A stretch of DNA of 64,000 nucleotides, taken from the NCBI GenBank assembly GCA_963848815.1, contig CAWKFY010000029.1:110544-174543 (forward strand), in the 5' to 3' direction. Position 1 is the first letter of the stretch, and each line of letters starts with the position of its first letter. A model generated the notes under the pieces. It worked only from the letters and a program-made list of their open reading frames with translations, was not told where the DNA came from and ran no database searches. The translations under genes and the position numbers were made by a program. Source of the stretch: an uncultured Chloroflexia bacterium. GTDB lineage: Bacteria > Chloroflexota > Dehalococcoidia > GIF9 > UBA5629. This document shows, piece after piece, positions 17,297-47,499 of this stretch.

Positions 17297-19645
17297 ATGT
17301 TTAAGAAAATACCGTCCTGGGTTATTCCGCTTGTGCTGCTTATCGTAATCCTGGCTGTTGCCCTGTGGTTGCGTATATTACTTCCCTACAATCAGGTCTT
17401 CGTAAATGATTGGGTCAAGATAACAGGCGTCGATGGCAATTTTTACATGAGGCTGGTAGAAAACCTTGACGCGCATTTTCCCAACATTACGCATTTCGAT
17501 CCCTATTACGTTTTCCCGGACGGTGCCCGTACCGATCAGCAGCCCCTGTTCTTTGCCTTCCTGATGGGAGGCATTGCATGGTTAGTCGGGCTGGGCAACC
17601 CCTCCACGCACCTTGTAGATGTCGTTTCGGTATATGTTCCTCCATTCCTCGCGGCCTTGAGCATTGTAGCAATCTTTTTTATAGGCAAGGCTCTGATCAA
17701 CAAATGGGTCGGGCTGATTGCTGCCGCACTACTGGCGGTTATGCCGGGCGAGTTTCTCAACCGGTCAATGCTGGGCTATACGGACCATCATGTCGCGGAG
17801 GTATTATGGTCGACCGCCTGTATGTTATTCACCATGCTTGCTTTCCGGTTTGGCGGAAGCATGGATATTAAATTCATCAGGGATAAGGGATGGAAGCCCG
17901 TTGTCAAGCCACTTGTGATGTGTGTCCTGGCCGGAATATCCCTGGCTTTTTACATGGCGACCTGGGTCGGAGCCGCCCTGTTCACCCTGATATTGGCTGT
18001 GTTCCTGGTTATCCAAATTATCGTCGATTACAACCGGGGCGTCAGCGCAGTGGCCGCCGGCGCAATAGGGATAGTAATCTTCCTCTCGGCACTGATAGTC
18101 TATTTGCCATTTGGGAGGGTGTTTTCCGTAACATTGATTTCAATGATCGGCGGGATGGGGTTGCTGGTGGTTCTGGTAGCGCTGGCCGAAATGCTGGCGA
18201 GGCGCAATATCAGAACGGTTTACTATGTTAGCTCGCTGGCAGGGCTGGCTGTAGTCGGCACACTTGCATTATATATGTTTTCACCCCAATTACTATCGAC
18301 CATATTCGACTCGCTAGCCAAGATTTTTTTCTGGGTCCCGGACACAACCATTATGGAGATGCAACCCCTTCTGCTTCAACAGGGACAGTTTACGCTGGTT
18401 AATATATTCAGCAACTATACCACGGCACTGCTGGTGGGGTTGGCTGGCCTGGTACTGATGCTTTACCAGGTATTCAAACAGGCAACACCACTCAGGATAT
18501 TGATGCTCGTATGGACTGTATTGATCCTGCTTTCCGCTCTCGCCGCCAGAAGGTTTGCCTACTATTTCGCCGTAAACGTAGCCCTGCTTTCAGGCTATTT
18601 TGCTTGGTGGCTGCTGGAAAAAGTGGGGTTCGGCAGGGAGAAAGCTCCTGCAGATCTGGTGCAGCCCTCGGCGAGGACCAAGACTTCCAGAACCAGGCTG
18701 GCCCAGATTAAGAAGGAGAAAAGGACCAAGCCGGCTGTCATGGCGCTGACTTTGATAGCCGTCCTATTCGTATTAATTTATCCGGATTTGGGAGTGATGC
18801 CGGGTGGACAGAAGCCTTCGATCGACCTGGCATCCCGGCCTCTTTTCGCCCCGCCGGATGCCTGGTACGCATCGTTGGAATGGATGCAAAAGAATACTCC
18901 GGAGCCGCTGGGCGATGCCAATGCCTATTATGGAGTATATAAAGCTCCGGGCCAGGCTGGAGGGTTTGTCTACCCTGACAATGCCTATGGCGTTTTATCC
19001 TGGTGGGACTATGGCTACTGGATATCCCTCGTGGGCAGGAGAATACCCTTCTCCAACCCCGGCACATCGGCCACGAGGGGAGAGGCTAAATTCTTAATGG
19101 CGCCCGACGAGGCCTCGGCCGAGCAGTCTATCAAGGATATCAACATCAAGTACGTCGTCATCGACAACGAAATGGCTTCCTGGGACAGCAAATTCTTTGC
19201 GCTCGCCCAATGGTACGGCAAATCCTATACGGACTACTACGATTTATACTTGCAGAAGGGAGATGGAAATAACTATTCACAGGTGCTGCTTCTCTATCCG
19301 GAATATTATCAGACCATGGTAGTCCGGCTCTATAATTTCGACGGCAAAGCGGTTACCCCCAGCAAGGTGACGGTAGTCGGGATCGGAAAGATTACAGCTA
19401 AAGATGGGACTGCATATAACCTGATCACCGACACCAAACAGTTTAATTCGTATGACGAAGCTGTAGCGTTTGTAGCCGGGCAAAAACCCGGCACGTACAT
19501 GATTGTGGGTGAAGACCCGTACAACAGCCCGGTTCCGTTGGAGGCAATAAAGGACTACAAACTGGTTCATGCCTCCGATCAGGAAGTAGCCGCCGGACAG
19601 AGCGGAATACCGCAGGTTAAGATTTTCGAGTATCAGAAACAGTAA
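17297..19645 (+). CDS. STT3/AglB/PglB-family oligosaccharyltransferase
   Basis: The 782-aa ORF has many N-terminal TM helices and a soluble C-terminal domain. The ordered motifs are KITGVDGNFYMRLVE, GYTDHHVAEVLW, SWWDYGYWIS (the WWDYG catalytic motif) and NIKYVVIDNEMASWDSKF (a DK-like segment). Confidence 0.85.
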   Translation: MFKKIPSWVIPLVLLIVILAVALWLRILLPYNQVFVNDWVKITGVDGNFYMRLVENLDAHFPNITHFDPYYVFPDGARTDQQPLFFAFLMGGIAWLVGLGNPSTHLVDVVSVYVPPFLAALSIVAIFFIGKALINKWVGLIAAALLAVMPGEFLNRSMLGYTDHHVAEVLWSTACMLFTMLAFRFGGSMDIKFIRDKGWKPVVKPLVMCVLAGISLAFYMATWVGAALFTLILAVFLVIQIIVDYNRGVSAVAAGAIGIVIFLSALIVYLPFGRVFSVTLISMIGGMGLLVVLVALAEMLARRNIRTVYYVSSLAGLAVVGTLALYMFSPQLLSTIFDSLAKIFFWVPDTTIMEMQPLLLQQGQFTLVNIFSNYTTALLVGLAGLVLMLYQVFKQATPLRILMLVWTVLILLSALAARRFAYYFAVNVALLSGYFAWWLLEKVGFGREKAPADLVQPSARTKTSRTRLAQIKKEKRTKPAVMALTLIAVLFVLIYPDLGVMPGGQKPSIDLASRPLFAPPDAWYASLEWMQKNTPEPLGDANAYYGVYKAPGQAGGFVYPDNAYGVLSWWDYGYWISLVGRRIPFSNPGTSATRGEAKFLMAPDEASAEQSIKDINIKYVVIDNEMASWDSKFFALAQWYGKSYTDYYDLYLQKGDGNNYSQVLLLYPEYYQTMVVRLYNFDGKAVTPSKVTVVGIGKITAKDGTAYNLITDTKQFNSYDEAVAFVAGQKPGTYMIVGEDPYNSPVPLEAIKDYKLVHASDQEVAAGQSGIPQVKIFEYQKQ

Positions 19646-19662
19646 TCCGGGAACAACTATAT

Positions 19663-19693
19663 AAACCGGTGGAGCTAATTACAGCCGGTTTTT
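19663..19693 (+). terminator. possible intrinsic terminator after the OST gene
   Basis: A 7-bp stem (AAACCGG / CCGGTTT) with a 15-nt loop runs into a T5 tract, ~20 nt after the stop codon. The loop is long, so the call is weak. Confidence 0.3.
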
Positions 19694-19865
19694 ACATAGT
19701 CGCAGTTGCATCTCGGGTTACGTTAACCGGCGTATCCTTCAGTCGAGGACTATACCGTACGAATTATGCTTCGCATGTGAGAAGAGTTTAATTTGGACTC
19801 CGCCTATTTGAAGAATGAAAAGAATTTTGACATAATTCTAGCCGTGTTACACTGTATTTAAATAC

Positions 19866-20945
19866 ATGAAAAAGAATATTAAGGCTTTGATACTCAGCGG
19901 TGGCAAGGGGACCAGGCTCAAGCCTCTTACAACCACCATCCCGAAACAGCTTCTGCCCGTGGCTAACAAGCCCATACTTTCGTACGTGTTAGACCAGGTA
20001 GTTGAAGCGGGTATCACGGATATCGGGATGATAATTGCTCCCGAGACCGGCTACCTGATAAAAGAGTTTGCCGGCGATGGGTCAAGGTGGGGCGCTAAAA
20101 TCACTTATATCGTGCAGGCAGACCCCCTGGGCCTTGCTCACGCCGTAAGCACTGCCGCAGAGTTCCTGGGCTCGTCCTCCTTTTTGATGTTTCTGGGCGA
20201 TAACCTGATCCAGGGTGGTGTTAAGAAATTTGTCGACCGTTTCCGCAGTGATGAGTCGGACTCGTTGATACTGCTTAAATCCGTACCGGACCCGCGCCTT
20301 TTCGGCGTGGCCGAGATCGATAAGAAAGGAACCCTGCTTAGACTGGTAGAAAAACCCAAGAAGCCCAAAAGCGACCTGGCCATAGTGGGCGTATATCTTT
20401 TTAATGAACGTATCCATACCGCTATTAAACAAATAAAACCTTCCTGGCGCGGCGAGTTGGAAATAACCGATGCCATACAAAAAATGATAGATACGGACCG
20501 TAAGGTCGGCAGCCATATTTTGAAAGGCTGGTGGTTGGATACCGGTAAGAAGGACGATATGCTGGAAGCTAACAGGGTTGTACTGGATGACCTGCTGGTC
20601 CGGGATATACAGGGGAAGATCGATAGCAACAGCCGCGTGGCGGGGCGTGTCGCAATCGGTAAAGGCACCGAGATCATTAACAGCCGGGTACGCGGGCCGG
20701 TATCGATATCCGAGGGATGCAAGATCATCAATTCGTTCATCGGGCCCTTCACCAGCATAGGGTCGGGGTCTATCATTGAAGACTCTTTTATAGAGCATTC
20801 GGTTATCCTCGAGGGGTGCTATGTTAAAAAGATCGAACGTCTTGAAGATAGCATCATTGGAAGGGCATGCAAGGTGATTTACGACGAAAGCAGTTTCCAC
20901 AACAAGAAATTGTTCCTGGGCGATGATGCTATTGTTGAACTTTAA
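19866..20945 (+). CDS. rfbA: glucose-1-phosphate thymidylyltransferase, long form (nucleotidyltransferase + left-handed beta-helix)
   Basis: The 359-aa ORF has the LILSGGKGTRLKPLT motif and C-terminal hexapeptide repeats. It is followed by rmlC/B/D homologues. Confidence 0.8.
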   Translation: MKKNIKALILSGGKGTRLKPLTTTIPKQLLPVANKPILSYVLDQVVEAGITDIGMIIAPETGYLIKEFAGDGSRWGAKITYIVQADPLGLAHAVSTAAEFLGSSSFLMFLGDNLIQGGVKKFVDRFRSDESDSLILLKSVPDPRLFGVAEIDKKGTLLRLVEKPKKPKSDLAIVGVYLFNERIHTAIKQIKPSWRGELEITDAIQKMIDTDRKVGSHILKGWWLDTGKKDDMLEANRVVLDDLLVRDIQGKIDSNSRVAGRVAIGKGTEIINSRVRGPVSISEGCKIINSFIGPFTSIGSGSIIEDSFIEHSVILEGCYVKKIERLEDSIIGRACKVIYDESSFHNKKLFLGDDAIVEL

Positions 20946-20970
20946 TATTCTTTGATGGGAAGGATTTATC

Positions 20971-21486
20971 GTGATTAAAAATTATGCGTTGGAAGGAATA
21001 AAAAGCCAGGAGATCAACTTACTGCCTGATGAACGCGGCCTTTTCGCTGAAATAATGAGATCAGACTGGCAGGACCTGATAGATGAGAAGATAGTCCAGG
21101 CCAATTTGAGCCAGAGTTACTCCGGGGTTGTTAGGGCCTGGCATCGCCACATGCGCGGCCAGGTCGATTATTTTATAGTGGTGAAGGGCGCCCTGAAAAT
21201 CTGCGCCTATGATGACAAGTCCAGGCAACTGGTTGAAATCGTTGACAGCAGCAGCAGGCCGATGCTGGTAAGGATTCCCGGACATTACTGGCACGGCACT
21301 CGCAACGTGGGCGATGAACTTTCCATAGTGGTGTATTTTACCAATCGTCTTTATGATGCCGGCAATCCGGACGAGGAGCGCCGCAGCTGGAATGATCCTC
21401 AGATAATACCGGTTGAGATAAACGGCAATAGGAATGACCCTCGGGCCGGCAAACCTTTCGACTGGTTCTTTCCTCCCTATAAATAA
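20971..21486 (+). CDS. rfbC: dTDP-4-dehydrorhamnose 3,5-epimerase-like cupin
   Basis: The 171-aa ORF has a GTG start and a cupin core (RAWHRH..QVDYF.VV.G, HGT.N). It lies between rmlA and rmlB. An alternative role as an NDP-sugar ketoisomerase cannot be excluded. Confidence 0.65.
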   Translation: MIKNYALEGIKSQEINLLPDERGLFAEIMRSDWQDLIDEKIVQANLSQSYSGVVRAWHRHMRGQVDYFIVVKGALKICAYDDKSRQLVEIVDSSSRPMLVRIPGHYWHGTRNVGDELSIVVYFTNRLYDAGNPDEERRSWNDPQIIPVEINGNRNDPRAGKPFDWFFPPYK

Positions 21487-21504
21487 TCTCGGGCGTGAAT
21501 CACA

Positions 21505-22512
21505 ATGAAAATAATAGTTACCGGCGGCGCCGGCTTTATCGGAAGCAATTTTATTCGGTTGGTTCTTCAAGAAAAAACCCAATGGGAAGTCGTCAATTTC
21601 GATAAGCTGACCTATTGCGGAAACCTGGAAAACCTCAAGGACTTTCAAGATGATCCAAGGTACCATTTCATTCACGGGGATATCGCCGACAGAGAGTCGG
21701 TCGATGGTATGCTGGCGAAGGAGCGCCCGGACTCTATCATTAATTTCGCGGCCGAGTCCCATGTAGATCGCAGCATACTCGATGCTTCTCCTTTTATACA
21801 TACCAATGTTGAAGGCACCATGGTGATGCTGGAAGGCGCCAATAAATATCAGGTCAAAAAGTTCGTACAGGTGTCCACCGACGAAGTTTACGGATCTATA
21901 AACAGAGGCAGCTTTAACGAACGTTCAAACCTGGCGCCGGGCAGCCCCTATTCGGCCAGCAAGGCCGCGGCGGACCTGCTCTGCCTGGCCTATTGGAACA
22001 CGCATAAGACTCCGGTTACGGTGACCCGCTGTACCAACAATTACGGCCCCTACCAGTTTCCCGAAAAATTGATCCCGCTGGCTATCAGCAACGTTATTGA
22101 GGGCAAATCCATACCTGTGTATGGTGATGGCCTTAATGTACGCGATTGGATATATGTGGAAGACCATTGCCGCGGCCTGCTTGATGTGCTCGAGAAGGGT
22201 AAGCCCGGTGAAGTCTATAACATAGCGGGAAGCAGCGAGAAAACCAACCTGGAGATTGTGCACACCCTGCTCCGTCTGCTGGATAAAAAGCAGGACATGA
22301 TAGATTTTGTTAAGGACCGGCCGGGACATGACCGCCGGTATAGCCTCGATGATAAGAAAATACGCAAAGAGTTGGGTTGGAAGCCGCGCCACAACTTCGA
22401 CGAAGCTATGAAACTGACAGTCGACTGGTACCGTTTGAATAATGCCTGGTGGCAGAGGATCAGGAGCGGCGAATATTTAAAATACTACGAGAAAATGTAT
22501 CTCAATAGATGA
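21505..22512 (+). CDS. rfbB: dTDP-glucose 4,6-dehydratase
   Basis: The 335-aa ORF has VTGGAGFIGSNF, STDEVYG and YSASKAA motifs and the typical C-terminus. Confidence 0.9.
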   Translation: MKIIVTGGAGFIGSNFIRLVLQEKTQWEVVNFDKLTYCGNLENLKDFQDDPRYHFIHGDIADRESVDGMLAKERPDSIINFAAESHVDRSILDASPFIHTNVEGTMVMLEGANKYQVKKFVQVSTDEVYGSINRGSFNERSNLAPGSPYSASKAAADLLCLAYWNTHKTPVTVTRCTNNYGPYQFPEKLIPLAISNVIEGKSIPVYGDGLNVRDWIYVEDHCRGLLDVLEKGKPGEVYNIAGSSEKTNLEIVHTLLRLLDKKQDMIDFVKDRPGHDRRYSLDDKKIRKELGWKPRHNFDEAMKLTVDWYRLNNAWWQRIRSGEYLKYYEKMYLNR

Positions 22513-23378
22513 AAATACTACTGATTGGCGCCAATGGGCAACTGGGCAGCGATCTCTGTATAGCGCTTCAAGAAAATGACCTGACGGCCCTGACTGATAA
22601 AGATATAGACATAACGGATATCGATTCTGTCTTCGAAGCATGCAGTAAATACAAGCCTCAGATCGTAATTAATACGGCTGCGTATGTTCGTGTGGATGAT
22701 TGTGAGGATAATATTGATCTGGCTTACAAGGTGAATGCGTTGGGTGCACGCAATGTTGCTGTAGCAGCCCAGAAAGCAGGGGCCGTTCTGGCACATTTAA
22801 GTACGGATTATGTTTTTGGTGAAGATGAGAAGAGAATGGTTCCCTATACGGAGTTCGATCCGCCTGCGCCAATAAGTGTATACGGTCATTCAAAGCTGGC
22901 AGGGGAAAACTACGTTCGTCATCTATGCAGCAGGTATTTTATTGTGAGGACTTCTGCCTTATTTGGGGTGGCGGGAAGCATGGGGAAGGGTGGCAATTTT
23001 ATTGAGACGATGATCAAAATGGCGCAAGAAAAGGATGAACTGCGTGTAGTCAATGACCAGGTCTTTTCACCTACCTACGCCAAAGACCTGGCCAATGAAA
23101 TAGCCCTATTGATAGATACAAAATACTACGGAATATTTCATATCACGAATAGCGGTGTTTGTTCCTGGTACGACTTTGCGAGCGAAATAGTGACATTGTG
23201 CGGCGCCAGGGCGCGTGTGGTTCCCATTTCTTCGAGAGATTATCCGCAGAGGGCGAGACGCCCGGAATATTCAGTTCTGAGTAATTACCATCTGAAACTG
23301 CTGGGAATGGATGATATGAGAGACTGGAGAGAAGCGTTAAAGGATTATATGCTGGCTAGAAGGGGAACTCATTCATAG
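22509..23378 (+). CDS. rfbD: dTDP-4-dehydrorhamnose reductase
   Basis: The 289-aa ORF has the RmlD pattern (ILLIGANGQLG, STDYVF, YGHSKLAGE). It overlaps the rfbB stop by 4 nt. Confidence 0.9.
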   Translation: MKILLIGANGQLGSDLCIALQENDLTALTDKDIDITDIDSVFEACSKYKPQIVINTAAYVRVDDCEDNIDLAYKVNALGARNVAVAAQKAGAVLAHLSTDYVFGEDEKRMVPYTEFDPPAPISVYGHSKLAGENYVRHLCSRYFIVRTSALFGVAGSMGKGGNFIETMIKMAQEKDELRVVNDQVFSPTYAKDLANEIALLIDTKYYGIFHITNSGVCSWYDFASEIVTLCGARARVVPISSRDYPQRARRPEYSVLSNYHLKLLGMDDMRDWREALKDYMLARRGTHS

Positions 23379-23395: not shown

Positions 23396-24154
23396 TTATA
23401 ATTTCGAAAACAGCGGTTTAACCAGTTCAAATGCTTTGGATGCAAGATATGTCGGTATTACCTCTGTATTATTACACCGTTTGCAAAGATCGTACCAAGG
23501 TTTATAATTTTGTTTCACAATCTCATATCTCTCTGTAAAAAGATTGCCTATTCTATGCCGAAGTCCAAAATCCATGCAGCAAAGGTAAAGATTTCCATTA
23601 GGTAACATTGTGAATCCAGGTTTTTCCCATTTTGGACAAATCCTAAAAAACAGGTTTTTTTCTCTATAAATACCTCTGCAATAATTTTCACGATTGTTTG
23701 ATGCAAAATTATCGTTCATAATATCGAAAGTAACATTGTGAACTTTTTGTATTACAGTGAATACATGCTCCTTATATTTCTCTGTAATTTGTATATGGGC
23801 GTGTTCTCCATCCGGTAAATGTAAACAAAATTCGGCATATTTATAGCTCGCCAACTCATCAATGTCCTGGTCAGATGCTCCGACTAATGTAGTATTTACA
23901 ACTACAGGATGTTTTTTTTCGATTGAATAGCGAATAAATTTTATAGCATCTTTATTGGCAAATGGTTCACAAAATCCGGAGAAAACTACCGGTAGATTAT
24001 CGGGCAAATTGTTTAAAGCGATCTTAAAATTATCTACTGTTAACGATCGATTATTTTCGCCGTAATTCTTTACGGTTATTTCCTGTGGACAATACTTGGC
24101 GCAATTGATCGGACATCCTATATGCGTGGTTATTTCAACAAATTCAGCATTCAT
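23396..24154 (-). CDS. small radical SAM-like enzyme with SPASM/twitch-like C-terminal Cys motifs
   Basis: The 252-aa ORF has an N-terminal Cys triad in THIGCPINCAKYCPQ and C-terminal LYLCCMDFG...GNL...DLCKRCNN. It is the first gene of the low-GC island. Confidence 0.6.
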   Translation of the reverse strand: MNAEFVEITTHIGCPINCAKYCPQEITVKNYGENNRSLTVDNFKIALNNLPDNLPVVFSGFCEPFANKDAIKFIRYSIEKKHPVVVNTTLVGASDQDIDELASYKYAEFCLHLPDGEHAHIQITEKYKEHVFTVIQKVHNVTFDIMNDNFASNNRENYCRGIYREKNLFFRICPKWEKPGFTMLPNGNLYLCCMDFGLRHRIGNLFTERYEIVKQNYKPWYDLCKRCNNTEVIPTYLASKAFELVKPLFSKL

Positions 24155-26164: not shown

Positions 26165-26182
26165 TCAAACGCAGGCGTAAAA

Positions 26183-26788: not shown

Positions 26789-26789
26789 T

Positions 26790-28358: not shown

Positions 28359-28407
28359 TAGGCAGCCAAAAGATGATTTTATATCGGCAGGTGGAGTATT
28401 TGAAAGT

Positions 28408-29409: not shown

Positions 29410-29424
29410 GGAAATCGAGAAGGC

Positions 29425-30914: not shown

Positions 30915-30931
30915 GTGTTGATGGAGTTAAT

Positions 30932-31939: not shown

Positions 31940-31960
31940 AATAAAAGAGGAAAGATTAAT

Positions 31961-37674: not shown

Positions 37675-37689
37675 GGAGATCCAGACTTT

Positions 37690-38909: not shown

Positions 38910-41216
38910 TCACCTCGTGAAAAATATCTGCGCCCCGCCATTACTATAAATCCTGTCGCTCCGGCTTAAAGTATCCGCCAGGCCTGTAACATCCTGGATT
39001 TTTACGTGTTTCCGCAGCCCTGCTTTCCCGATGGTGAAAGTAATCTCGCCCTTTTGGGTATTCCACGACCTTAGATAAATATATGAGGGCCCCTGAAATT
39101 TACTGTCGAGTGTAATCAAACCGGCCGTAACTTTATCATTTACAAATATGAGCATGTTTTCAGCATGATAGTCGGAGTAAACTGTTATTCGGTCCCCCGC
39201 CCGTTCAAACAGCCATTGCGGCGCATGCTGGTCCATTTGATTAAAAATGCCCACGATATCGACGCGGCCTGCTGTTAAAGCTATAGAAAAAGGAGTGTCC
39301 ACACTCTCAGTATCCTGTTGCGTGGTGATTTCATACACAATTCCCGATGTAAAAATGAAATAGGGCACCAATAACAGGCATGACACGGCTATATAGAATG
39401 CGGAATTCACGCCGGGCCTTGGCGCATTTTGGGCTTTAGTCCTGATCTTATTAAGCAGAGATTTACCGATGTCCCATACCGCTCCGGCACCAAGTATGCA
39501 AAACGGGGCCAGTGTGATAAGGGCTATATGGTACCAGCGTGTGATGTTTAACCGGTCGGCAAAATCGGGAAGCATAATGCAGGCTGCCAGGATGCCGAGG
39601 CTGACCAGGCTCAGGCCGATATATTCTATACGGAACTTGAGGCCGCTGGGTTTTATAAGCAGCCTGAGGCAGCCGGCAATAATGAAAAATTGGGTCAGGT
39701 ACTGCAATATGCGGAATATTTTGCCCGGCAGGGAGACCTGTGAAAAATCCAGGCCGAGAGCCGTCATGATAAGCGCATTGCCCTGCCCGAAATTGGACAG
39801 GTGCGCCGGACTGAAAAATGCGGAGATCGCCCGCGCCGTATCCGCAAATTGGCTGGACAGAGTGTTTTCGAGAAATTTCAGGCTGCTTCCGGAAGCCGTT
39901 AATCCGGCCCAGGTTATCCCAAGAAGCAGGTACAGTATTATGGGCGCCGCGAGGATTATCAAAGGGAGCCCTCCTGCGCCTGGTTCCTTCATATAGGCTG
40001 GTAGTCCTCCTGTCTTTCGAGTCAGCCATTCCCAGGCTTTGAGGAAGCAGCCTGTCCTCATGATGATGACGAATACCAGCATGAGTCCGAGATATCCGAA
40101 ATTAATAAATCCCAGTGCGTAATGCGATGCGGCAATGAACATGGGGAAAATGATCATCAAGATTATTTTGGCCTTGAATTGAATCCGCCGTTCAATGCAG
40201 AGGAGGATGAAGAGGGCGAAAAACAGCTCTGCTATTTGCTGTCTGCAAAGGCTGATCATCTCGAGCGAAAAGGTGGGCATGGCCATGAAGAAGAAAGCGG
40301 CCAGGAATGCACCCCTATCGCCGATCTGCATTCTGAAGATGCGGTAAAGCAGGAGGGGCACAAGCGAGAAAAACAGCGGGTAAATTATTTTGAATACATA
40401 TACCAGGTCCAGGTTCATCACCTGTGAATAGACCGGAGCCATTATAACTATGCTGAGGCAGGAGTTAACCGTACCAGGCAAGGAATAGGCCCAGATGCCG
40501 CTGTTAAGCACAAGCTGGGCGAACTGGTATTCAACATAGACATCGGTGCCGATTAGTAGAGGGGAGATCAGCGTCGTCTGGTATAAAAGACAGAGGCTGA
40601 TAATAAAAATTGCGGCGGGGAATAGAGGTGGAGTGATGAATTTGCCGCAAGCGGCCAGTATTACTATCAGCCCGATCAAAGCCAGGCAAATGATAAGCAG
40701 GAGGTTATTTCCAAAGGCATATATGAGGTTAGCGCCCAGGATTGTGAGGGCCAGCAGCAGCACCAGGAACAATGCCGGCAACAGCTCTTTGACCGGGGGC
40801 CATTTAAAAGGCTGCTCGGGCTGGAAATCCCTGTCCCTGAAATAGGCGGCAACCGCCAGGACGATGGTCGCTATAACGAATGTGGCCATCAGGGCAAATA
40901 GATTCAGCGGCGAATGGATGCCCAGCAACGGCAGGGCGAAGTTCAAAAGCGCTCCTGAGAACATGACGAAAGCCAGGCTCAGTCCCGCCGAATAGCCCAG
41001 GCTCTCGACCGGGTTGATCCTGTGAACCCGTAATATCCTCAGGATGAGTACGCCCGGCACGAAAGAAAGGAAGAGGAAACCGGTAAGCTGCCTGAGGACG
41101 GGTACGTCGATTCCGGCCAGGCCAAGGCAGATGAACAGGACCAGCGCTGCAGTCAGTGCGATGACCGCATTTAATAGATGTTTGAAGGACCAGTCGGCGG
41201 GTGCAACGATATTCAT
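38910..41216 (-). CDS. large polytopic membrane protein with C-terminal soluble domain; candidate GT-C-type glycosyltransferase/polymerase (possibly DUF2206-like)
   Basis: The 768-aa ORF has more than 15 hydrophobic segments over ~620 aa, then a ~150-aa hydrophilic tail (..RITVYSDYHAENMLIFVND..YIYLRSWNTQKGEITF..RIYSNGGAQIFFTR). It is embedded among GT genes. The family assignment comes from memory only. Confidence 0.5.
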   Translation of the reverse strand: MNIVAPADWSFKHLLNAVIALTAALVLFICLGLAGIDVPVLRQLTGFLFLSFVPGVLILRILRVHRINPVESLGYSAGLSLAFVMFSGALLNFALPLLGIHSPLNLFALMATFVIATIVLAVAAYFRDRDFQPEQPFKWPPVKELLPALFLVLLLALTILGANLIYAFGNNLLLIICLALIGLIVILAACGKFITPPLFPAAIFIISLCLLYQTTLISPLLIGTDVYVEYQFAQLVLNSGIWAYSLPGTVNSCLSIVIMAPVYSQVMNLDLVYVFKIIYPLFFSLVPLLLYRIFRMQIGDRGAFLAAFFFMAMPTFSLEMISLCRQQIAELFFALFILLCIERRIQFKAKIILMIIFPMFIAASHYALGFINFGYLGLMLVFVIIMRTGCFLKAWEWLTRKTGGLPAYMKEPGAGGLPLIILAAPIILYLLLGITWAGLTASGSSLKFLENTLSSQFADTARAISAFFSPAHLSNFGQGNALIMTALGLDFSQVSLPGKIFRILQYLTQFFIIAGCLRLLIKPSGLKFRIEYIGLSLVSLGILAACIMLPDFADRLNITRWYHIALITLAPFCILGAGAVWDIGKSLLNKIRTKAQNAPRPGVNSAFYIAVSCLLLVPYFIFTSGIVYEITTQQDTESVDTPFSIALTAGRVDIVGIFNQMDQHAPQWLFERAGDRITVYSDYHAENMLIFVNDKVTAGLITLDSKFQGPSYIYLRSWNTQKGEITFTIGKAGLRKHVKIQDVTGLADTLSRSDRIYSNGGAQIFFTR

Positions 41217-41227: not shown

Positions 41228-42362
41228 TTAAGCCCTGCGTTTATTGGCTGAATGCGCAGCCACCGCTTCATTATAGATTGCCATTGTGAGGGCGGCTATC
41301 TTATCCCATGAATACTCGCCGCTTTTCATTCTGGTATAGGCATTCTCTCCCATACTCTTGCGAAGCTCATCATTATTCAACAGCTTCAGCATAGCTTCGG
41401 CCAGTGCGCGTGCGTTTCGCGGCTGGACTATGATGCCCATCTTGCCATTTTCCACCATTTCAGCAAAGTTTCCCACATCTGTTGACCACCACCGGTTTTT
41501 TAAAGTCGGCCGCCACGGAAATCAGGCTGGTCTGCGTGCCGTCGGTGTAGGGCAGGACCACCAGATCGGCTGCCTCGAAGTAGTCCGATGCTTCAGAATC
41601 GGGGATATAGCTGTTACGGACCAGGAAGAAGCTGCGGTCGGCAAGCGATTTTTCGAATTTTGAGAGGTCCCCTTCTCCTGCTATAGTAACCGTCAGGCCG
41701 GGCACCGATGGCCTGATAATATTTACTGCTTCGATGAGGTACTCCAGTCCTTTATAGGGTGCGATCCTTCCGAAGAAAAGTATGTTTTTACCTGTCTTCT
41801 TCCGGTCATGCGGTTGCCGAGGAGAAAAAGGAAAAATTGCCGTGCGGCACTACGTGTACCTTTTCCACCGGCAGTCTGGAGATCAGCCTGGTATTTTTCA
41901 GTCCTGCGCTGTGAATGATTATTTCGTCGGAGCAGCGGGCCAGCCGGCTGTTGTTGATATATTGAAGGCCGCCGGCGAGCAGGTTGGCGGCCCATCCCCT
42001 GTTGGGGATGGCCCTCGGCTCGTGAATGGTCGCCACCATCGGGTATTTGCGATTGAGCCTGCAGGCGTAGAAAAAGGGGAACCTGTGCTCGAAAACCAGG
42101 TGTACGACGTCGGGCTTTTCACGGTCCAGGGTGTTGAGGAATAGCTTCATAAAACGCGGGCTTAGCGCTGTAAAGGCGGCCGGCGCCAGGGTAAACGGCA
42201 GCGGCAGCCTTATTATGGAGACCTGTTGAGCAAAAAGGCCTGTATCGGCGGCGGCCGGAAGCAGTACGGATACCTTGTTTTCAACGGACAGGGCGTTGAC
42301 AATTCTGCCGTATATTGCGCCCCGGCTCCATAGGCCGCAAACGTGACGATGGCTATTTTCAA
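41228..42362 (-). pseudogene. GT4 glycosyltransferase broken by at least four frameshifts
   Basis: The reading order across five frames is as follows. First comes (TTG)KIAIVTFAAYGAGAQYTAE, the tail of track ORF 42213..43646. Next is IVNALSVENKVSVLLP...MKLFLNTLDREKPDVVHLV..VHVVPHGNFSFF (41806..42150). Then FLLGNRMTGRRQ (41723..41995) and GKNILFFGRIAPYKGLEYLIEAVNIIRPSVPGLTVTIAGEG...FKKPVVV (41460..41705). Last is GNFAEMVENGKMGIIVQPRNARALAEAMLKLL.. (41228..41476). Confidence 0.75.
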
Positions 42363-42367
42363 ATTTA

Positions 42368-43592
42368 TTACCGCGATGGGTCCAGGTAATAATTCAATTG
42401 GTCGTTGATGATGTCCTTGAGGCTGTACGCCGTCTTGAAACCAAGCTTTTCTATCTTGGCAGTCGAGGCCAGCAATATGGGCACTTCCGCCGGCCTGAAC
42501 CGTTCCGCGTCGAAGCTGATAGTTACCTTGCCTTTGGAGGTGAAGACGTAAAGGCCTTCGTCTTCGGCCTGTGAACTCGATCTCACCGTCCAGCAGCATC
42601 CGGTCGATCTTAGTTTTTTCGAAGCTGAGTCCTGAGAATTTTGTCTTATCGGGAGCGGTGGGGTTGACCACGGTCTTCTTGCCCCTGATGGACTTTATTT
42701 TTTCTACTTTATAGTCGGCGCATTCGAGGCTCAAAAGCAGGTAGGTGATAACCGAGTTGGTGCGCTGCGAGCCCTGGTTATATACGTCGCCGTACTTGCC
42801 TTTCTGCGCCAGCAGGCAGTAACCCTTGATAACGTCGGTAACGTGCGACCAGTCCCGGAAGGCGTTAACATTCCCGATCACTATCTTGTCGGTCTCGCCC
42901 CTTTTCAGCTTCATTACCTGCCGTGTTATGTTGGAGGTGACGAACATGATGCCCCGGCCGGCGCCCTCGTGGTTAAAGCCCCTGGAGACGACGGTTTTCA
43001 GGCCGAAGCTGTGATGATAGTTCCTCATGAGGAAGTCGCCGTAAACCTTGGTGACGGCATAGGGCGACATGGGACGCAGCGGGTTCTCTTCGGTGATGGG
43101 CACTTCGGGAATCCTGGCAGGCTCGGGGAATATCACGCCGTATTTCTTTTTGGCTTCTTTATATTGAGCATCGGAGTAAATGACCAGGCCATACTCTTCG
43201 CTGCTGCCGGCAAACACGATAACCGGAGTAATTCTCTTATTGCTGACAGCTTCCAGCAGGTTGCTGGTGCCGCCGCAGTTGATATCCATCGTCTCGCTGG
43301 GACAGGCGAAGGACCGCTGCACGAAGGATTGTGCGCCAAGATGGAAAATAAAATCAGGCCTGGTTTTATCCAGCGCCGAAGCTATGCTGGATATATCCAG
43401 CAGGTCGCTTTCCACTAAGGTCAGATCGTCCTGAATTCCCAGGCATTTAATGTTGTAGGGACAGATGCCGTCGGCGCGCCTGCGGAAGAGGCCGTAAACG
43501 TGTGCGCCCAGCTTGATCAGGTGGTTGGCCAGGTAAGAACCTGCGAAGCCGCTGATGCCCGTGATGAGGACATTTTTATTTTTAAAACTCAC
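42368..43592 (-). pseudogene. NDP-sugar dehydratase/epimerase (extended SDR, long GMD-like form) with one frameshift
   Basis: The GTG start at 43592 follows GGAGGTGAAAAC (VSFKNKNVLITGISGFAGSYL, YAVTK). After ..MLLDGEIEFT the frame is lost near ~42575, and the true C-terminus is track ORF 42368..42586 (AEDEGLYVFTSKGKVTISFDAERFRPAEVPILLASTAKIEKLGF..). The 477-aa track ORF 42213..43646 is a read-through chimera. Confidence 0.7.
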
Positions 43593-43608
43593 GTTTTCAC
43601 CTCCTTTA

Positions 43609-44738
43609 TCATGAGTTGCCGGTTGCCTGCCGGTAAATTCTATCATAGTTATCGATGCAACTGGCCCAGTAAAAATATTTCTTGTCGGTCTTAACGGCCT
43701 CTCCGCGATAAATGCGTATTACACCGTCTGCGATTGCGGCTGCATTGCCCGGCTCAACAAGCACATAATTGCCCGAGACGATCTCGGGCAGGGACGCAAC
43801 ATTAGAGGCTACCACCGGCCTGTCCATAGCACAGGCTTCGGCTGCGGAGAAACCGAAACCCTCGGAGATGGAAGGTACTACCACGCAGTCGGCGGCGGCA
43901 ACGTAGCCCGGCAGCTCGATGCGTGGCACCGGGTCGAGGACCACGATCCTGTTCCCCATTTGCATTTCCTCCACCATGGCCAGTATCTTTTTGTAGCCTT
44001 CAACCGGCTCCTTTCCCAGAAGTACGATGAGCCTGGCGCCGGGATATCCCTGGATATCAGAGGGGCCGCCGCTACCAGGTGCTCCACCCCCTTGGAGATG
44101 CCCGGCCGCCCGAAATACATGTAGACAAAATTGTCTTTTACATTCAGCATTTCCCTGATGTGCGGCCTGTCCGCCCTGGATATATCGAAGAAATCGTAGT
44201 CGATGCCGTTGTAAGACACCGAGATCTTTTTAGTATCTATATGGTATTTTTCTATCCGCCCTGCCGTGTATTTCGATACCGACATATAGCGGTCGAAGGG
44301 CAGCGCCACGATCAGCCATTCCAGAATCCTGTGCAGCCAGGCCGTCAACCGGTTCATACCCTGCATATCCTTCCAGCCGGAGCCGATGATTTCGTGGACG
44401 GTGATAACACACTTTTTACCCGTCAATTTTGCAGCCAGCCAGGCGGGGAAGGCGCCGTTGTAGGTCGTGGTCTGGATTATATCGAACTTTTTGGCCAGCC
44501 TGAGGGCGGGCGGAATAGCCAGGAATGTGAACCAGTAGCGCGACCCCTTGTGGGGAGTTTTAACGCGCAGCACCTGGACTCCGTTTACCACCTCGTCATA
44601 TGGGGCCTGCGGCAACCTGCTGGTTATAACCGTTACGTCGTAGCCCCTCCCAACCAGGCCCTCGCACAGGTTCTTAAAAAGCACCTCGGCCCCACCGATG
44701 AAAGGGAAGTAGTTCTCCAGGACGAACAGGACTTTCAT
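43609..44738 (-). pseudogene. GT4 glycosyltransferase with one frameshift
   Basis: The N-terminal part is track ORF 43878..44738 (MKVLFVLENYFPFIGGAEV.., up to ..ISRDIP). The C-terminal part is in another frame, as track ORF 43609..43977 and upstream (GARLIVLLGKEPVEGYKKILAMVEEMQMGNRIVVLDPV...SEGFGFSAAEACAMDRPVVASN). The junction is near ~44045. Confidence 0.7.
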
Positions 44739-44749
44739 ACGCTCAGCTT

Positions 44750-45454
44750 TTAACCGGTCTTTCTAAATTCTTCCTTTATCCTTATTTTAAATACTGCGGC
44801 TGCAACGCTCAATCCGTGGATAAACGGGTTAAGGGTGGACCCCGCATCGTGATAGATGCAGGATATGGGGACCTCCACCATTTTCAGTCCCTTTTTGCGT
44901 GCCTGCACCAGCGTCTGAATGCTGAAGCCGAAGTCCTGGTAGGTTATATGCATAGACTCCGCAGCCTTCCGGCTGTAGGCGCGGAACCCGCTCTGGGAAT
45001 CGAGTAGCCTGTCTTTGCGGCCAAAATTATACAGCCAGTTTATCAGATTGATTCCGAACTTACGGTAAACCGGTGCACAGTCCTTTTTCATAAAACGGGA
45101 ACCGATGACCATATCCGCATTGCCTGTAGTAAGAGGCTTGAGAAGGAAAGGTATCTCATCCGGGTTATGCTGGTTATCGCCATCCAGTGTTACTATAACT
45201 TCTGCGCCGTCCCCGAGGGCTGCCTCCAGGCCGGTCCTGGTGGATGCGCCGGCTCCGAGGCTGGCCGGATGGCTGATGACTTCGGCGCCGGCCTGGACAG
45301 CCGCCTGCGCGGTCCTATCGGTAGAGCCGTCATCCACGACTATAACTTTATCCACATATTTGGCCGCTCTGGTTACGACGTCGCCGATGAACCTTTCTTC
45401 GTTGAGACAGGGGATGACGGCGACGACTCTGGAGATATGGTCGTCAGGGTTCAT
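44750..45454 (-). CDS. GT2 polyprenyl-phosphate glycosyltransferase-like (Dpm1/AglJ/GtrB-type catalytic domain)
   Basis: The 234-aa ORF has AVIPCLNEERFIG, VVDDGSTDRT and TLDGDNQH (DxD). No TM segment is apparent. Confidence 0.75.
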   Translation of the reverse strand: MNPDDHISRVVAVIPCLNEERFIGDVVTRAAKYVDKVIVVDDGSTDRTAQAAVQAGAEVISHPASLGAGASTRTGLEAALGDGAEVIVTLDGDNQHNPDEIPFLLKPLTTGNADMVIGSRFMKKDCAPVYRKFGINLINWLYNFGRKDRLLDSQSGFRAYSRKAAESMHITYQDFGFSIQTLVQARKKGLKMVEVPISCIYHDAGSTLNPFIHGLSVAAAVFKIRIKEEFRKTG

Positions 45455-45720
45455 TTGTTTAAAAGAGTATCTGGAATAGGGCTTTTAGTCAACAAAACCG
45501 GCTATGTTAGGCTGTAACGGCATGGCGAGGAGCCCGTCCCTCATTATTGCGGCAATCCCCGCACCCTTCGATCGAAGGATTGCCACTTCCCGATTTTATT
45601 GGGGACATAGTCAATTGGTTTTGGAGTTTGGAACTTGGAATTTTCCCCGCAGGGTTAGGTTCCCTCTCAGGAAAAAAATTCCCCTCTCTGGGGAGAGCAG
45701 GTGGGGGACAAATCCCCTGT

Positions 45721-47499
45721 TTATTTAACGGTTACAGATTTAGCAAGGTTGCGTGGCATATCGGGGTTATGCCCGCGCTTGATGGTCATATGGTAGGCCA
45801 GTAACTGCAGCGGAACGACGGCAACTATGGGGTAGAGAAGCTCGTGCACCTTGGGCAGCCTGATCCAGTGGTCGTAGATCTCGTTATCTTCATCGGAGAC
45901 GGCGATGATCCTGGCGCCGCGGGACTTGGCCTCAATGGCGTTGCTTAGAGTCTCCCTGTAGGTGTAATCGCCCGGGCAGATAGCCAGCACCGGTACTCCC
46001 TCTTCTATAAGTGAAAGCGTGCCGTGCTTGAGCTCGCCGGCGGGCATGCCCTCGGCATGGATATAGGATATTTCCTTGAGTTTGAGGGCGCCCTCGGAGG
46101 CGATGGCAAAATTGATGCCGCGTGCTATGAAATAAAAGTCGCTATTTCTATAGTATTTGTTGCATATAAGGCTGATTTCATCCTTGTTCCAATCGATCAC
46201 CTTGGCAACCTGCTTGGCCACCTTGCGGATGTTATCCACAGCCATATCGAAACAATGCACCATAGAGAAAGCGAGCAGATAGAAGACGGCGATCTGGTTC
46301 AGGAACGACTTGGTGGCGCAGACGCCGATCTCGGGGCCGCAATTCAAGTAGATCACGTAGTTGCTGAGCTCGCCCAGCAGGGATTGGGGCCTGTTGATGA
46401 TGGATACTATCTTGGCCCCGGCGTTGCGCGCCAGTTGAACGCCCTCGATGACGTCCAGCGTTTCGCCGCTCTGTGATACGGCCAGCACCACTGTATTCTT
46501 GCTGACGGATTCGGCAAAATACTGGAACTCCGAGGCCATGACGACTTCGGCGAATTTCTTGCCCACGCTCGAGAACAGGTAGCGGCCTACCAGTGCAGCG
46601 TAACGCGATGATCCGCAGGCGGTTATGATCACCTGGTCCGCCCTCAGGATATCCAGGGCGATACTGGTGAAGTTCTCTTTGTCCTGGTTGGCGGCGGCCA
46701 GCAGCGTTTTAGGCTGCTCCATGATCTCTTTAAGCATGAAATATTCATAATCGCCCTTGTCGGTCTCGGCCCATATGACATCGGGCTTGATGAACTTCTT
46801 GCTTATTTCGCGTCCGGTATGGTCGTAGAACGTGGTCTTCTCGGGGGTCAAAACGGCAGTTTCTCCGTCTCCCAGCAGGTAGAGCTGGTCGATCTGGTCG
46901 AGGAGGGCCAGCGAGTCGCTGGCGGCAAAGGCCTTATGGTCGCCCAGGCCGACTACCAGCGGGCTGCCCTTGCGGGTGCCGACGATCTTATTGGGTTCCC
47001 TGGTGGAGATGGCCAGGAAGGCATAAGAGCCGTGCAGCCTGGGCGCCACATGCATGACAGCTTCCTCGAGGGAGCGGCCTTTATTCATCTCATCTTCGAT
47101 TTTATGCGGGATGACTTCCGTGTCTGTCTCGGATACGAAATGATGTCCCCTTTTGATCAGGTCATCGCGCAGTTCCTGGTAGTTATCGACGATTCCGTTG
47201 TGGATGACGGCTATCTGGTTTTTGCAGTCGCAGTGCGGGTGGGTATTGATCCGGGTTACGCCACCGTGCGTGGCCCAGCGGGTATGCCCGATGCCCATAT
47301 GTCCCGGCATCTTGTCCAGCTTATATTTACTGTTGACCTCTTCCAGCGTGCCGACGCCCTTTTTAACCGCCAGCGACTTGCCGGAGATCATAGCTACTCC
47401 CGAGGAATCATAGCCGCGGTACTCCATGCGTTTCAGTCCCTGGAAAATTATGGATGCCGCATTGCCGTTTTTGCCGCAGTAGCCGATAATCCCGCACAT
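45721..47499 (-). CDS. glmS: glutamine--fructose-6-phosphate aminotransferase (isomerizing)
   Basis: The 592-aa ORF starts MCGIIGY, has two SIS domains and ends ..PRNLAKSVTVK. Confidence 0.95.
   Translation of the reverse strand: MCGIIGYCGKNGNAASIIFQGLKRMEYRGYDSSGVAMISGKSLAVKKGVGTLEEVNSKYKLDKMPGHMGIGHTRWATHGGVTRINTHPHCDCKNQIAVIHNGIVDNYQELRDDLIKRGHHFVSETDTEVIPHKIEDEMNKGRSLEEAVMHVAPRLHGSYAFLAISTREPNKIVGTRKGSPLVVGLGDHKAFAASDSLALLDQIDQLYLLGDGETAVLTPEKTTFYDHTGREISKKFIKPDVIWAETDKGDYEYFMLKEIMEQPKTLLAAANQDKENFTSIALDILRADQVIITACGSSRYAALVGRYLFSSVGKKFAEVVMASEFQYFAESVSKNTVVLAVSQSGETLDVIEGVQLARNAGAKIVSIINRPQSLLGELSNYVIYLNCGPEIGVCATKSFLNQIAVFYLLAFSMVHCFDMAVDNIRKVAKQVAKVIDWNKDEISLICNKYYRNSDFYFIARGINFAIASEGALKLKEISYIHAEGMPAGELKHGTLSLIEEGVPVLAICPGDYTYRETLSNAIEAKSRGARIIAVSDEDNEIYDHWIRLPKVHELLYPIVAVVPLQLLAYHMTIKRGHNPDMPRNLAKSVTVK

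Follow-up and report, generated by a model that had tools for sequence, protein, structure and literature searches.

To our knowledge, N-glycosylation in bacteria is known experimentally almost only from the PglB systems of Campylobacterota and Desulfobacterota, and AglB is regarded as an archaeal enzyme. In Methanococcus, the Dpm1-like glycosyltransferase (GT) AglK makes Dol-P-GlcNAc, which is then elongated and transferred by AglB. In Haloferax volcanii, aglJ and aglB are located at opposite ends of the agl cluster, an AglD/AglR/AglS branch operates, and rhamnose is added by Agl10–14 (PMC5867893). The N-glycan of Thermoplasma contains heptose, and the linking sugar is put on dolichol phosphate by a dolichol phosphate glycosyltransferase; this charging of dolichol phosphate has been described in a review (PMC11407970). 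The present analysis concerns a glycan island at positions 17297–48029 of a 64,000-nt stretch of DNA from an uncultured Dehalococcoidia bacterium (positions 110,544 to 174,543 of contig CAWKFY010000029.1, assembly GCA_963848815.1), hereafter called the window. The gene content and gene order make it rather probable that this is an AglB-dependent N-glycosylation island of a bacterium, homologous in its logic to the euryarchaeal agl clusters and having transfer to asparagine as its endpoint. A preliminary description of the same DNA had pointed to a ~30-kb locus of almost exclusively glycan-related genes; in the Pfam and NCBIfam annotation of the window, every gene class listed there was found where it had been placed, and the locus proved to be a single uninterrupted island of ~31 kb in which every open reading frame (ORF) could be assigned.

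The gene at the left end of the island (17297–19645, plus strand) encodes an AglB-type oligosaccharyltransferase (OST) of 782 aa. The protein carries the Pfam STT3 domain (PF02516, 2e-20, residues 25–438) followed by an AglB_core-like domain (PF22627, 2.5e-20, residues 523–627), and reaches 608.5 bits against NCBIfam TIGR04154 ([quoted passage not shown]), for which the curated cut-off is 450. Its closest solved relative is AglB-L of Archaeoglobus fulgidus (5gmy/3waj, E 3.5e-51); eukaryotic STT3 chains matched much more weakly, and PglB chains were absent from the PDB sequence matches at E ≤ 1e-3. Alignment to AfAglB-L placed the catalytic motifs at D46 (GVD for GND), D163-H-H165, T351-I-M-E354 (TIXE), W569WDYG573 and D623..M626..K632 (DK-type, with a spacing that exceeds that of AfAglB-L by two residues), and the catalytic residues were invariant or nearly so across 20 homologues. 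By its sequence, the OST is a genuine archaeal-type AglB with intact catalytic residues. Membership of the STT3 family, on which the preliminary description had made its own model depend, is supported by the Pfam domain, the TIGR04154 score and the retained motifs. The archaeal logic proposed there was borne out in the OST type, but the description missed that the likeness is one of homology, in a Dehalococcoidia host and thus in a group where glycan islands with AglB are widespread. This host is a bacterium, represented by a Dehalococcoidia metagenome-assembled genome (MAG): the flanks of the island carry a bacterial-type CobU, a cob/btuFCD operon and QueA, and the nearest named homologues belong to Dehalococcoidia/Chloroflexota.

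The likeness to the H. volcanii agl clusters (AglJ, AglG, AglI, AglE, AglD, AglR, AglS, AglB; low-salt Agl5–15) is extensive. As there, the AglB-type OST and a Dpm1-like GT occupy opposite ends of the island, RmlABCD homologues (Agl11–14) would provide rhamnose, and the make-up of the cluster varies in a serotype-like manner (PMC5867893). Further common components are soluble GTs that would extend a lipid-monophosphate glycan, a Wzx-like flippase (AglR/Agl15), a putative outer-face lipid-P-sugar transferase (AglS) and a DUF1616 protein, which in H. volcanii is an AglB-dependent N-glycoprotein (PMC8241124). Hence aglB, a Dpm1-like lipid-phosphate GT, soluble GTs, sugar-nucleotide genes and a flippase are all joined in one locus. 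Unlike in H. volcanii, the host is bacterial, a heptose cassette is present, the AglJ-like GT2 falls short of the AglJ model (124.9 bits, cut-off 325), the window shows neither an S-layer glycoprotein nor an archaeosortase, and the DUF2206 protein of the island can be likened to AglS by its proposed role only. The Methanococcus AglK/AglC/AglB pathway shares with the island the AglB OST and differs in its sugars; there, a Dpm1-family GT instead of a phosphoglycosyltransferase (PGT) initiates on polyprenyl monophosphate, a role for which the AglJ-like GT2 is a candidate here.

Other described systems resemble the island less closely. The Campylobacter jejuni pgl locus is also a bacterial en-bloc N-glycosylation cluster with a single-subunit STT3-family OST; a Pgl-type assignment was nevertheless ruled out, as the OST of the island is of the AglB type, no WcaJ-domain match indicative of a PglC-type PGT was found in six frames of the window, Wzx takes the place of the ABC flippase PglK, and diNAcBac genes are lacking. 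Wzx/Wzy O-antigen clusters and Gram-positive S-layer O-glycan (slg) clusters, among which those of Aneurinibacillus and Geobacillus have rhamnose and GDP-D-glycero-D-manno-heptose, resemble the island in their rml and hdd/gmh genes, in their GT2 and GT4 enzymes and Wzx, and in having conserved flanks around a variable cassette of low GC. In contrast to these clusters, the locus is without PGT, Wzy, WaaL/WsaB-type O-ligase (Wzy_C), Wzz and ABC exporter, and its transferases are two GT-C enzymes, one of them AglB. No family match to Wzz, Wza, WaaL/Wzy_C or a glycan ABC exporter was found among the ORFs of 17297–48029, the sole ABC transporter being btuCD, so that the absences listed in the preliminary description hold for the locus (by Pfam, and by phmmer for PGTs). 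An O-antigen or capsule locus of the Wzx/Wzy type was ruled out by the missing PGT, Wzy, WaaL, Wzz and Wza in the window, even though Wzx is present. Finally, the modules of a polyprenyl-P-sugar synthase with GT-C enzymes (GtrB/GtrA/GtrC, ArnC/ArnT, GacI/GacK/GacL and PpgS/Rv3779) likewise place a small Dpm1-family GT2 near a large GT-C protein, and PpgS, DPMS and ArnC are the best families of the GT2 in the island; on the other hand, DUF2206 is uncharacterised and has no PDB sequence match, and the GT2 is without the C-terminal transmembrane (TM) helices of GtrB and ArnC.

The distribution of AglB was followed in a scan of one genome per GTDB species, which gave at least 434 loci; the best 80 of these 434 are described here, and were mostly from Dehalococcoidales/Dehalococcoidia MAGs. 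The comparison set consisted of 86 AglB-centred related loci, designated by L numbers. Weaker AglB relatives (26–35% identity) occurred in Planctomycetota and Acidobacteriota MAGs, Methanocellales, Methanosarcinales, ANME-1, Methanoperedens and Methanolobus, and the closest AglB proteins, where a source was named, came from “Dehalococcoidia bacterium” or “Chloroflexi bacterium” and bore the same PGAP name. Application of a profile of Dehalococcoidaceae-labelled AglBs resulted in 920 further AglBs, and all 120 of the 120 sources among the matches listed were metagenomic or MAGs. In a neighbour-joining tree (midpoint-rooted, without support values), the Chloroflexota AglBs formed one deep clade, apart from the methanogen/Methanomicrobia and the Planctomycetota/Acidobacteriota groups, a pattern that suggests old residence of AglB in Chloroflexota over recent transfer. 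A full-text literature search found no published study joining Dehalococcoidia or Chloroflexota with AglB, STT3 or oligosaccharyltransferase. Since hundreds of MAGs carry automatic AglB annotations, the gene as a sequence observation is not new in itself; its biology is apparently unstudied in this group. Dehalococcoidia isolates and single-cell genomes have been described as lacking peptidoglycan genes and having S-layers; the single-cell genomes carry glycoprotein-synthesis genes with GTs like those of S-layered archaea, and these archaeal-like GTs have already been suspected of glycosylating the S-layers (PMC4959651, PMC4959059).

The same island, in 22 kb, was present in three independent JGI metagenomes (L001, L004 and L005), with AglB 73% and DUF2206 68% identical to the proteins of the window, and the DUF2206 protein of this type of relative was found in ~100 assembly blocks. 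The gene order in these relatives is queA, DUF1616 (145 aa), glmS, AglJ-like GT2, GT4, methyltransferase, epimerase, GT4 and DUF2206, continuing with GT4, GT2, methyltransferase, GT4, radical-SAM/SPASM, Wzx, rmlDBCA, aglB and btuF; precomputed Pfam matches showed neither heptose genes nor PGT families in the L001/L004-type island. Among more distant relatives, four loci (L003, L006, L019 and L054) retained the cob/btuF–aglB junction with different genes downstream, L085 and L086 retained the block glmS, AglJ-like GT2, epimerase, GT4, DUF2206, GT4, GT2, and the cob/btu and queA flanks recurred in the independent assemblies L001, L003–L006, L019, L054, L085 and L086. The conserved core consists of aglB, rmlACBD, the rhamnosyltransferase-like GT2, GT4, DUF2206, the AglJ-like GT2, glmS and DUF1616; core genes are 68–88% identical to those of the nearest relative, and Wzx is 38% identical. 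Flanking DNA and the two ends of the locus have a GC fraction of 0.50–0.57, with aglB equal to the flanks, and the fraction falls to 0.38–0.46 at ~22–38 kb. These comparisons point to an island of conserved ends with a replaceable low-GC middle that is probably exchanged horizontally and that in this genome brought the heptose cassette with its own Wzx. Since Wzx travels with the variable part, it would flip the variable oligosaccharide, and since the middle of the island is exchanged, relatives would display different, serotype-like glycans.

Several variations on AglB were observed among the relatives. Two to four tandem AglB paralogues occur in the Dehalococcoidia loci L008, L013, L014 and L017, which recalls the three AglBs of A. 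fulgidus. Some Dehalococcoidia AglBs (P0244–P0246, P0253 and P0259) have an N-terminal DnaJ domain (PF00226), others are extended C-terminally to ~1040–1070 aa, and a few of the extended forms carry VCBS (P0034 and P0068) or fn3 (P0074). Downstream of AglB in L089 (10001–15469, GCA_041300405.1) come a GT4 and an ABC-2 membrane/ATPase pair, and judging from this gene order an ABC-type glycan exporter seems to be paired with AglB instead of Wzx in some lineages.

The GT2 at the right end of the island (44750–45454, minus strand, 234 aa) is the soluble Dpm1/AglJ-like enzyme announced in the preliminary description and a candidate polyprenyl-phosphate sugar synthase. It has no predicted TM segment, its best NCBIfam families are PpgS and AglJ, its best PDB matches are Pyrococcus furiosus DPMS (5mlz, 2.4e-12) and ArnC, and it is the only Dpm1-like gene in the locus. 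In ORF clustering of the AglB-centred loci, the commonest neighbours of AglB were NDP-sugar epimerases/dehydratases (24 loci), GT4 (17 loci) and AglJ-like GT2 (13 loci), the last being often located one to three genes from AglB, both in divergent Dehalococcoidia and in Methanocellales. PGTs were sought with Escherichia coli WecA and WcaJ (NC_000913.3) as phmmer --max queries against six frames of the window and the 86 loci (~1.3 Mb), a search whose sensitivity is limited by its single-sequence queries: there was no match in the six frames of the window, where no ORF carries PF00953 or PF02397 either, and matches were obtained in 2 of the 86 AglB-centred loci, WecA-like in L051 and WcaJ-like in L072. 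Within the limits of this search, AglB neighbourhoods favour Dpm1-like GTs over PGTs. In L051, a Vicinamibacteria MAG, the WecA-like PGT gene (8730–9956) stands immediately upstream of the AglB homologue, which suggests a diphosphate-linked route in this acidobacterial lineage, unlike most Dehalococcoidia loci. No isoprenoid genes are present in the window; in place of dolichol, the lipid carrier is expected to be a bacterial polyprenol.

The second membrane-bound transferase candidate is the 768-aa polytopic protein (38910–41216, minus strand) that the preliminary description had put forward, besides the OST, as a possible endpoint of glycan transfer. It belongs to DUF2206 (PF09971, 2.6e-49), has no NCBIfam match and no PDB sequence match, and was modelled with AlphaFold2 on an alignment with 29 homologues (pLDDT 82.6, pTM 0.87). 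In a Foldseek search of the PDB with this model, ranks 1–22 were all GT-C proteins (STT3, ArnT, AglB, AftA, PglB, DPY19, ALG12, ALG9 and AftD), with probabilities of 0.99–1.00, E values down to 1.4e-5 and target-normalised TM-scores of ≤ 0.50, and past rank 22 the probability dropped to ~0.1. By its model, the DUF2206 protein has a GT-C fold, which agrees with its proposed place as a second endpoint; on this evidence the locus encodes two GT-C enzymes, AglB and DUF2206. GT-C enzymes take polyprenyl-P-sugar donors. The family comprises at least 4704 representatives (50% identity) at E ≤ 1e-3. Across 30 homologues, the acidic residues E71, D225, E229, E319 and E330 are invariant (alignment numbering plus 1), and D37, which follows TM1, is consensus but not invariant; the DUF2206 gene of relatives has a GT4 gene immediately upstream. 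A different polytopic protein of 481–496 aa, with an invariant H-x-D-x-W after TM1, is conserved in L024, L031, L066 and L068 (e.g., L068 12818–14272), where genes for AglB, DUF1616 and an AglJ-like GT2 are its neighbours; for its 484-aa representative, no GT-C assignment is claimed, as it has no Pfam match and gave no significant hhalign match to the profiles of DUF2206 or AglB.

In the sugar supply of the island, the genes of dTDP-L-rhamnose synthesis, four as in the preliminary description, are rmlA (long form), an rmlC-like gene, rmlB and rmlD (19866–23378, plus strand). RmlA (TIGR01208, 467 bits), RmlB (TIGR01181, 484 bits) and RmlD (TIGR01214, 317 bits) exceed their cut-offs and are assigned at the NCBIfam equivalog level, RmlC is assigned by Pfam dTDP_sugar_isom only, and the rml proteins are 70–86% identical to those of relatives. 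The heptose genes follow, with an HddC-like nucleotidyltransferase, an HddA-like kinase, a GmhB-like phosphatase and an FSA/transaldolase (24468–27461, plus strand; best NCBIfam families HddC, HddA, GmhB and fsa_talC) and then a short-chain dehydrogenase/reductase (SDR), a GFO/IDH/MocA protein, GmhA, an RmlD-like reductase, a second GFO/IDH/MocA protein and an NDP-sugar 4,6-dehydratase-like protein (27507–32899, plus strand; Pfam and NCBIfam; GC 0.38–0.46). The four heptose genes and the transaldolase of the preliminary description are present at the family level, but none of them reaches an equivalog cut-off. An NDP-heptose pathway is nevertheless a reasonable reading, because heptose-type genes co-occur here and such cassettes recur beside AglB, directly adjoining it in L012, L015, L019, L067, L071 (Bryobacterales) and L082. 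The five tailoring redox enzymes counted earlier are indeed the SDR, the two GFO/IDH/MocA proteins, the RmlD-like reductase and the 4,6-dehydratase-like protein, and this set suggests a deoxygenated or otherwise modified heptose. A candidate for the radical SAM enzyme was also found (23396–24154, minus strand, 252 aa), but this small radical-SAM/SPASM-like protein is a weak call, with 25.7 bits against a gathering threshold of 29.5 for Radical_SAM and 20.9 bits for SPASM; neither it nor the GT2_4 gene of the window has a homologue in any of the 86 related loci. At the right end, glmS (45721–47499, minus strand; TIGR01135, 672 bits, above the cut-off) adjoins the AglJ-like GT2, a synteny retained in L004, L085 and L086.

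As to the GTs, the preliminary description had counted six, and this number had to be corrected: four are intact (33311–34555, 36742–37674, 37690–38874 and 44750–45454), and beyond these there are a truncated duplicate (34577–35029), a GT4 split by a frameshift (43627–44738) and a previously unnoticed GT4 pseudogene (41237–42362). The conserved-core pair of a rhamnosyltransferase-like GT2 (310 aa; TIGR01556 rhamnosyltran, 1.9e-25) and a GT4 (394 aa; GT4 families), both encoded within 36742–38874 on the plus strand, is 70–74% identical to L004 and retains its synteny. The 310-aa GT2 was considered as a second Dpm1/GtrB-like enzyme and rejected, its best matches being rhamnosyltransferase and GlfT2-like proteins. 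In the variable part, a GT2_4 (Glyco_tranf_2_4, 1.8e-12) is fused to a methyltransferase domain (33067–34555, minus strand), the methyltransferase part being frameshifted near 33489 and recognised as Methyltransf_23 in the overlapping ORF 33067–33489. The 5′ end of this gene is duplicated in a 251-nt direct repeat (34315–34565 versus 34789–35039, 90% identity); the second copy is the truncated ORF 34577–35029 (minus strand), near-identical to the first over ~75 N-terminal residues and joined to a short hydrophobic tail. Next to it lies the Wzx-type flippase (35049–36503, minus strand, 484 aa; Polysacc_synt, 3e-41), in agreement with the earlier call.

Compared with their L004 orthologues, three adjacent core genes at 41.2–44.7 kb, for a GT4, an epimerase and a second GT4, show at least five frameshifts. 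The GT4 pseudogene (41237–42362, minus strand) has three frameshifts, being covered by the L004 protein in tblastn as four pieces in three reading frames; its orthologue in relatives has 376 aa and is the GT4 located directly upstream of DUF2206. The NDP-sugar epimerase/dehydratase gene (42371–43592, minus strand; Pfam Epimerase/GDP_Man_Dehyd), of 407 aa in relatives, is frameshifted near 42572, with residues 1–340 in frame −3 and 341–407 in frame −1, and a 477-aa “epimerase” ORF is a spurious product of this frameshift. The second GT4 (43627–44738, minus strand), of 374 aa and intact in relatives, has one frameshift near 44040, with an N-domain ORF at 43878–44738 and a C-domain ORF at 43609–43977 (tblastn frames −3, then −2). 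A 237-aa methyltransferase of the relatives is missing from this damaged stretch. Phase variation is an unlikely cause of the frameshifts, as no long homopolymer tracts were seen at the two sites inspected. The gene damage and the acquisition of the heptose cassette together suggest that the glycan has been remodelled.

Two proteins had been proposed as acceptors on the strength of three N-x-S/T sequons each. The first of these, the product of the short DUF1616 gene (47592–48029, minus strand, 145 aa), consists of one TM helix and a beta-rich ectodomain; its match to PF07760 (4.4e-26) confirms the family and spans profile positions 151–298 of 307, i.e., only the C-terminal half. A single-sequence AlphaFold2 model (pLDDT 59) showed the TM helix and ~7 strands and was too poor for a fold search. 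DUF1616 is next to glmS in L004, L005 and L086 and next to AglB in L031 and L068, and it may belong to the pathway or be one of its clients. A sigma-70-like promoter, TTGACA-18-TAAAAT, matching 11 of the 12 consensus positions, is located just upstream of this gene (48046–48075, minus strand), heading the minus-strand DUF1616–glmS arm. The other protein, He_PIG (3032–5200, minus strand), is a membrane protein of type I: its Ser/Thr-rich Ig-like repeats lie outside, its one TM helix is near residue 450, and inside follow the proline-rich PPPPPPPIYYPPYPVAPPPPPPQP and a ~250-aa cytoplasmic tail without a domain match. The sequon counts given for both proteins were correct, but they are at chance level: composition shuffling gave 3.2 expected against 3 observed for He_PIG (P = 0.65) and 1.3 expected against 3 observed for DUF1616 (P = 0.12), and a single DUF1616 sequon position of the window recurs in two relatives.

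Several of these observations weigh against an AglB-dependent N-glycosylation island started by the AglJ-like GT2. Sequon enrichment had to be rejected as acceptor evidence, there being no excess over shuffled composition; no S-layer protein, archaeosortase or PGF-CTERM is recognisable within the 64-kb window; the sole structurally studied Chloroflexota surface filament showed putative O-linked densities, with no N-linked ones reported (PMC12488501); three core genes are frameshifted; and a PGT, Wzy or WaaL may be encoded elsewhere in a genome of which the window shows 64 kb. The AglJ-like GT2, moreover, falls below every equivalog cut-off (PpgS, 136.5 bits against 370; AglJ, 124.9 against 325), and in relatives it sits in the fixed block of glmS, GT2, epimerase, GT4 and DUF2206, which equally fits a pair of donor-maker and GT-C enzyme. 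It is a possible reading, though one that we hold less likely, that the AglB endpoint is the same and the wiring is different: a WecA/PglC-type PGT encoded elsewhere would start the glycan on polyprenyl diphosphate, the AglJ-like GT2 would make a polyprenyl-P-monosaccharide, plausibly of N-acetylhexosamine (HexNAc) because glmS and the epimerase are next door, and DUF2206 would add this sugar outside. By analogy with AglD and AglS, the GT2 could make the donor for DUF2206, and what speaks for this role is that the synteny of the GT2 with glmS, the epimerase and DUF2206 is fixed (glmS, AglJ-like GT2, in some loci a GT4, epimerase, GT4, DUF2206 in L004, L085 and L086, with DUF2206 at 45–68% identity). 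Other points in its favour are PpgS as the top NCBIfam match of the GT2, the polyprenyl-P-sugar donors of GT-C enzymes together with the GT-C fold of DUF2206, the fact that the locus has a single Dpm1-like gene, its 310-aa GT2 being rhamnosyltransferase-like, and the WecA-like gene directly upstream of AglB in the Vicinamibacteria locus. However, the AglJ-like GT2 adjoins AglB also in many loci without DUF2206 within 10 kb (L029, L038, L048, L058 and L067), PGTs are nearly absent across 1.3 Mb of AglB neighbourhoods, and dolichol monophosphate is a carrier of AglB-transferred glycans in archaeal models (PMC5867893, PMC11407970). The adjacency of AglB and AglJ-like GTs across domains and the scarcity of PGTs speak for the Dpm1-like GT2 as the putative initiator of the glycan, a role that we slightly favour over that of donor-maker.

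A more distant explanation dispenses with protein as the acceptor: the island would make a rhamnose/heptose polysaccharide or glycolipid, with DUF2206 as terminal transferase or polymerase and AglB as a mere neighbour with a separate substrate. We consider this unlikely. The rml genes, the rhamnosyltransferase-like GT2, GT4s, Wzx and a polytopic transferase do make up rhamnopolysaccharide and O-antigen loci as well, the distance between DUF2206 and AglB reaches 19 kb, and distant Dehalococcoidia have no DUF2206 within 10 kb of AglB; but AglB and DUF2206 bracket one island at one site in all close relatives, the locus has no Wzy_C, Wzz, Wza, ABC exporter or PGT, sugar genes, heptose cassettes included, begin right downstream of aglB in many lineages, and the fold of DUF2206 is GT-C and not that of any solved Wzy/WaaL-type protein. 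It is more doubtful still that the island is decaying or non-functional in this genome, or that the region varies between strains and its frameshifts arose in assembly. This would account for the confinement of at least five frameshifts to three adjacent genes, for the frameshifted methyltransferase domain and truncated duplicate at 33–35 kb and for the ~25 other orthologous genes each lying in a single frame. Against decay, AglB, DUF2206, the AglJ-like GT2, GT2, GT4, Wzx and all rml and heptose genes are intact, a pattern of remodelling and not of pathway loss. That a bacterial contig took up archaeal DNA through mis-assembly or mis-binning, finally, has a negligible probability. TIGR04154 is named as archaeal-type, and the DUF2206 and DUF1616 families have been described mainly from archaea; yet the btuF–aglB and DUF1616–queA junctions recur in independent JGI, ENA and NCBI assemblies, by which a contaminant or chimera is effectively refuted, the Chloroflexota AglBs form their own deep clade apart from Methanomicrobia, and the GC of aglB is that of the flanks.

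The island is flanked on its left by a minus-strand corrinoid salvage/uptake operon with cobU, cobS, cobT, cobA, cbiP/cobQ, cobD, cbiB and btuFCD (7721–16966). In the divergent btuF/aglB intergenic region at the head of this operon (330 nt, 16967–17296), no cobalamin riboswitch or other Rfam family was found at gathering thresholds, and the whole 64-kb window likewise contains no tRNA and, at these thresholds, no Rfam family. On the right, queA (48090–49097) is followed by electron-transfer flavoprotein (ETF), FAD-oxidase and CCG genes. This module (49566–56723, minus strand), consisting of two tandem pairs of FAD-linked oxidase and CCG/Fe-S genes and then the ETF alpha and beta genes, resembles a lactate- or glycolate-type electron-bifurcating dehydrogenase and has no relation to the glycan locus.

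By homology, RmlA, RmlB, RmlD and the RmlC-like protein supply dTDP-L-rhamnose, and GlmS feeds UDP-HexNAc synthesis. Under the AglB-dependent reading that we prefer, the HddC/HddA/GmhA/GmhB/FSA cassette would make an NDP-heptose to be modified by the 4,6-dehydratase-like protein, the RmlD-like reductase, the two GFO proteins and the SDR. The oligosaccharide would be assembled at the cytoplasmic face on polyprenyl phosphate, most likely started by the AglJ/Dpm1-like GT2 through a monophosphate linkage, as with archaeal AglJ, and elongated by the conserved GT4 and the rhamnosyltransferase-like GT2 and then by the cassette-specific GT2_4. The cassette-specific Wzx would flip the lipid-linked oligosaccharide, and AglB would move the glycan to the asparagine of N-x-S/T sequons in envelope proteins. 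The DUF2206 GT-C protein would carry out a further outer-face transfer from a polyprenyl-P sugar, probably decorating the glycan, by analogy with AglS.

Taken together, these elements lead to a broader proposal, which we put forward tentatively: Dehalococcoidia, whose cultured members are S-layered and without peptidoglycan, may make envelope glycoproteins by a vertically inherited AglB pathway with a PGT-free start on polyprenyl monophosphate; DUF2206, with its at least 4700 representatives, may be a new class of GT-C enzymes beside AglB, acting either on protein as a second glycosylating transferase or on the glycan as an AglS-like finisher; and AglB N-glycosylation may be a common bacterial trait, found also in Planctomycetota and Acidobacteriota MAGs. 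If functional, the island would bring archaeal-type N-glycosylation to a class of bacteria that is abundant, lives in the subsurface and matters for bioremediation, and would help to explain how the envelope is stabilised in wall-less, S-layered cells. DUF1616 would also receive its first function, as would DUF2206 in the form of a GT-C enzyme, and the island would offer a natural AglB working on bacterial polyprenol carriers, which would be useful for glycoengineering. The hypervariability of the aglB-anchored island implies that cell surfaces differ in a serotype-like way, which would bear on phage susceptibility in the communities concerned. If this reading is true, AglB-type N-glycosylation would no longer be a hallmark of archaea and eukaryotes.

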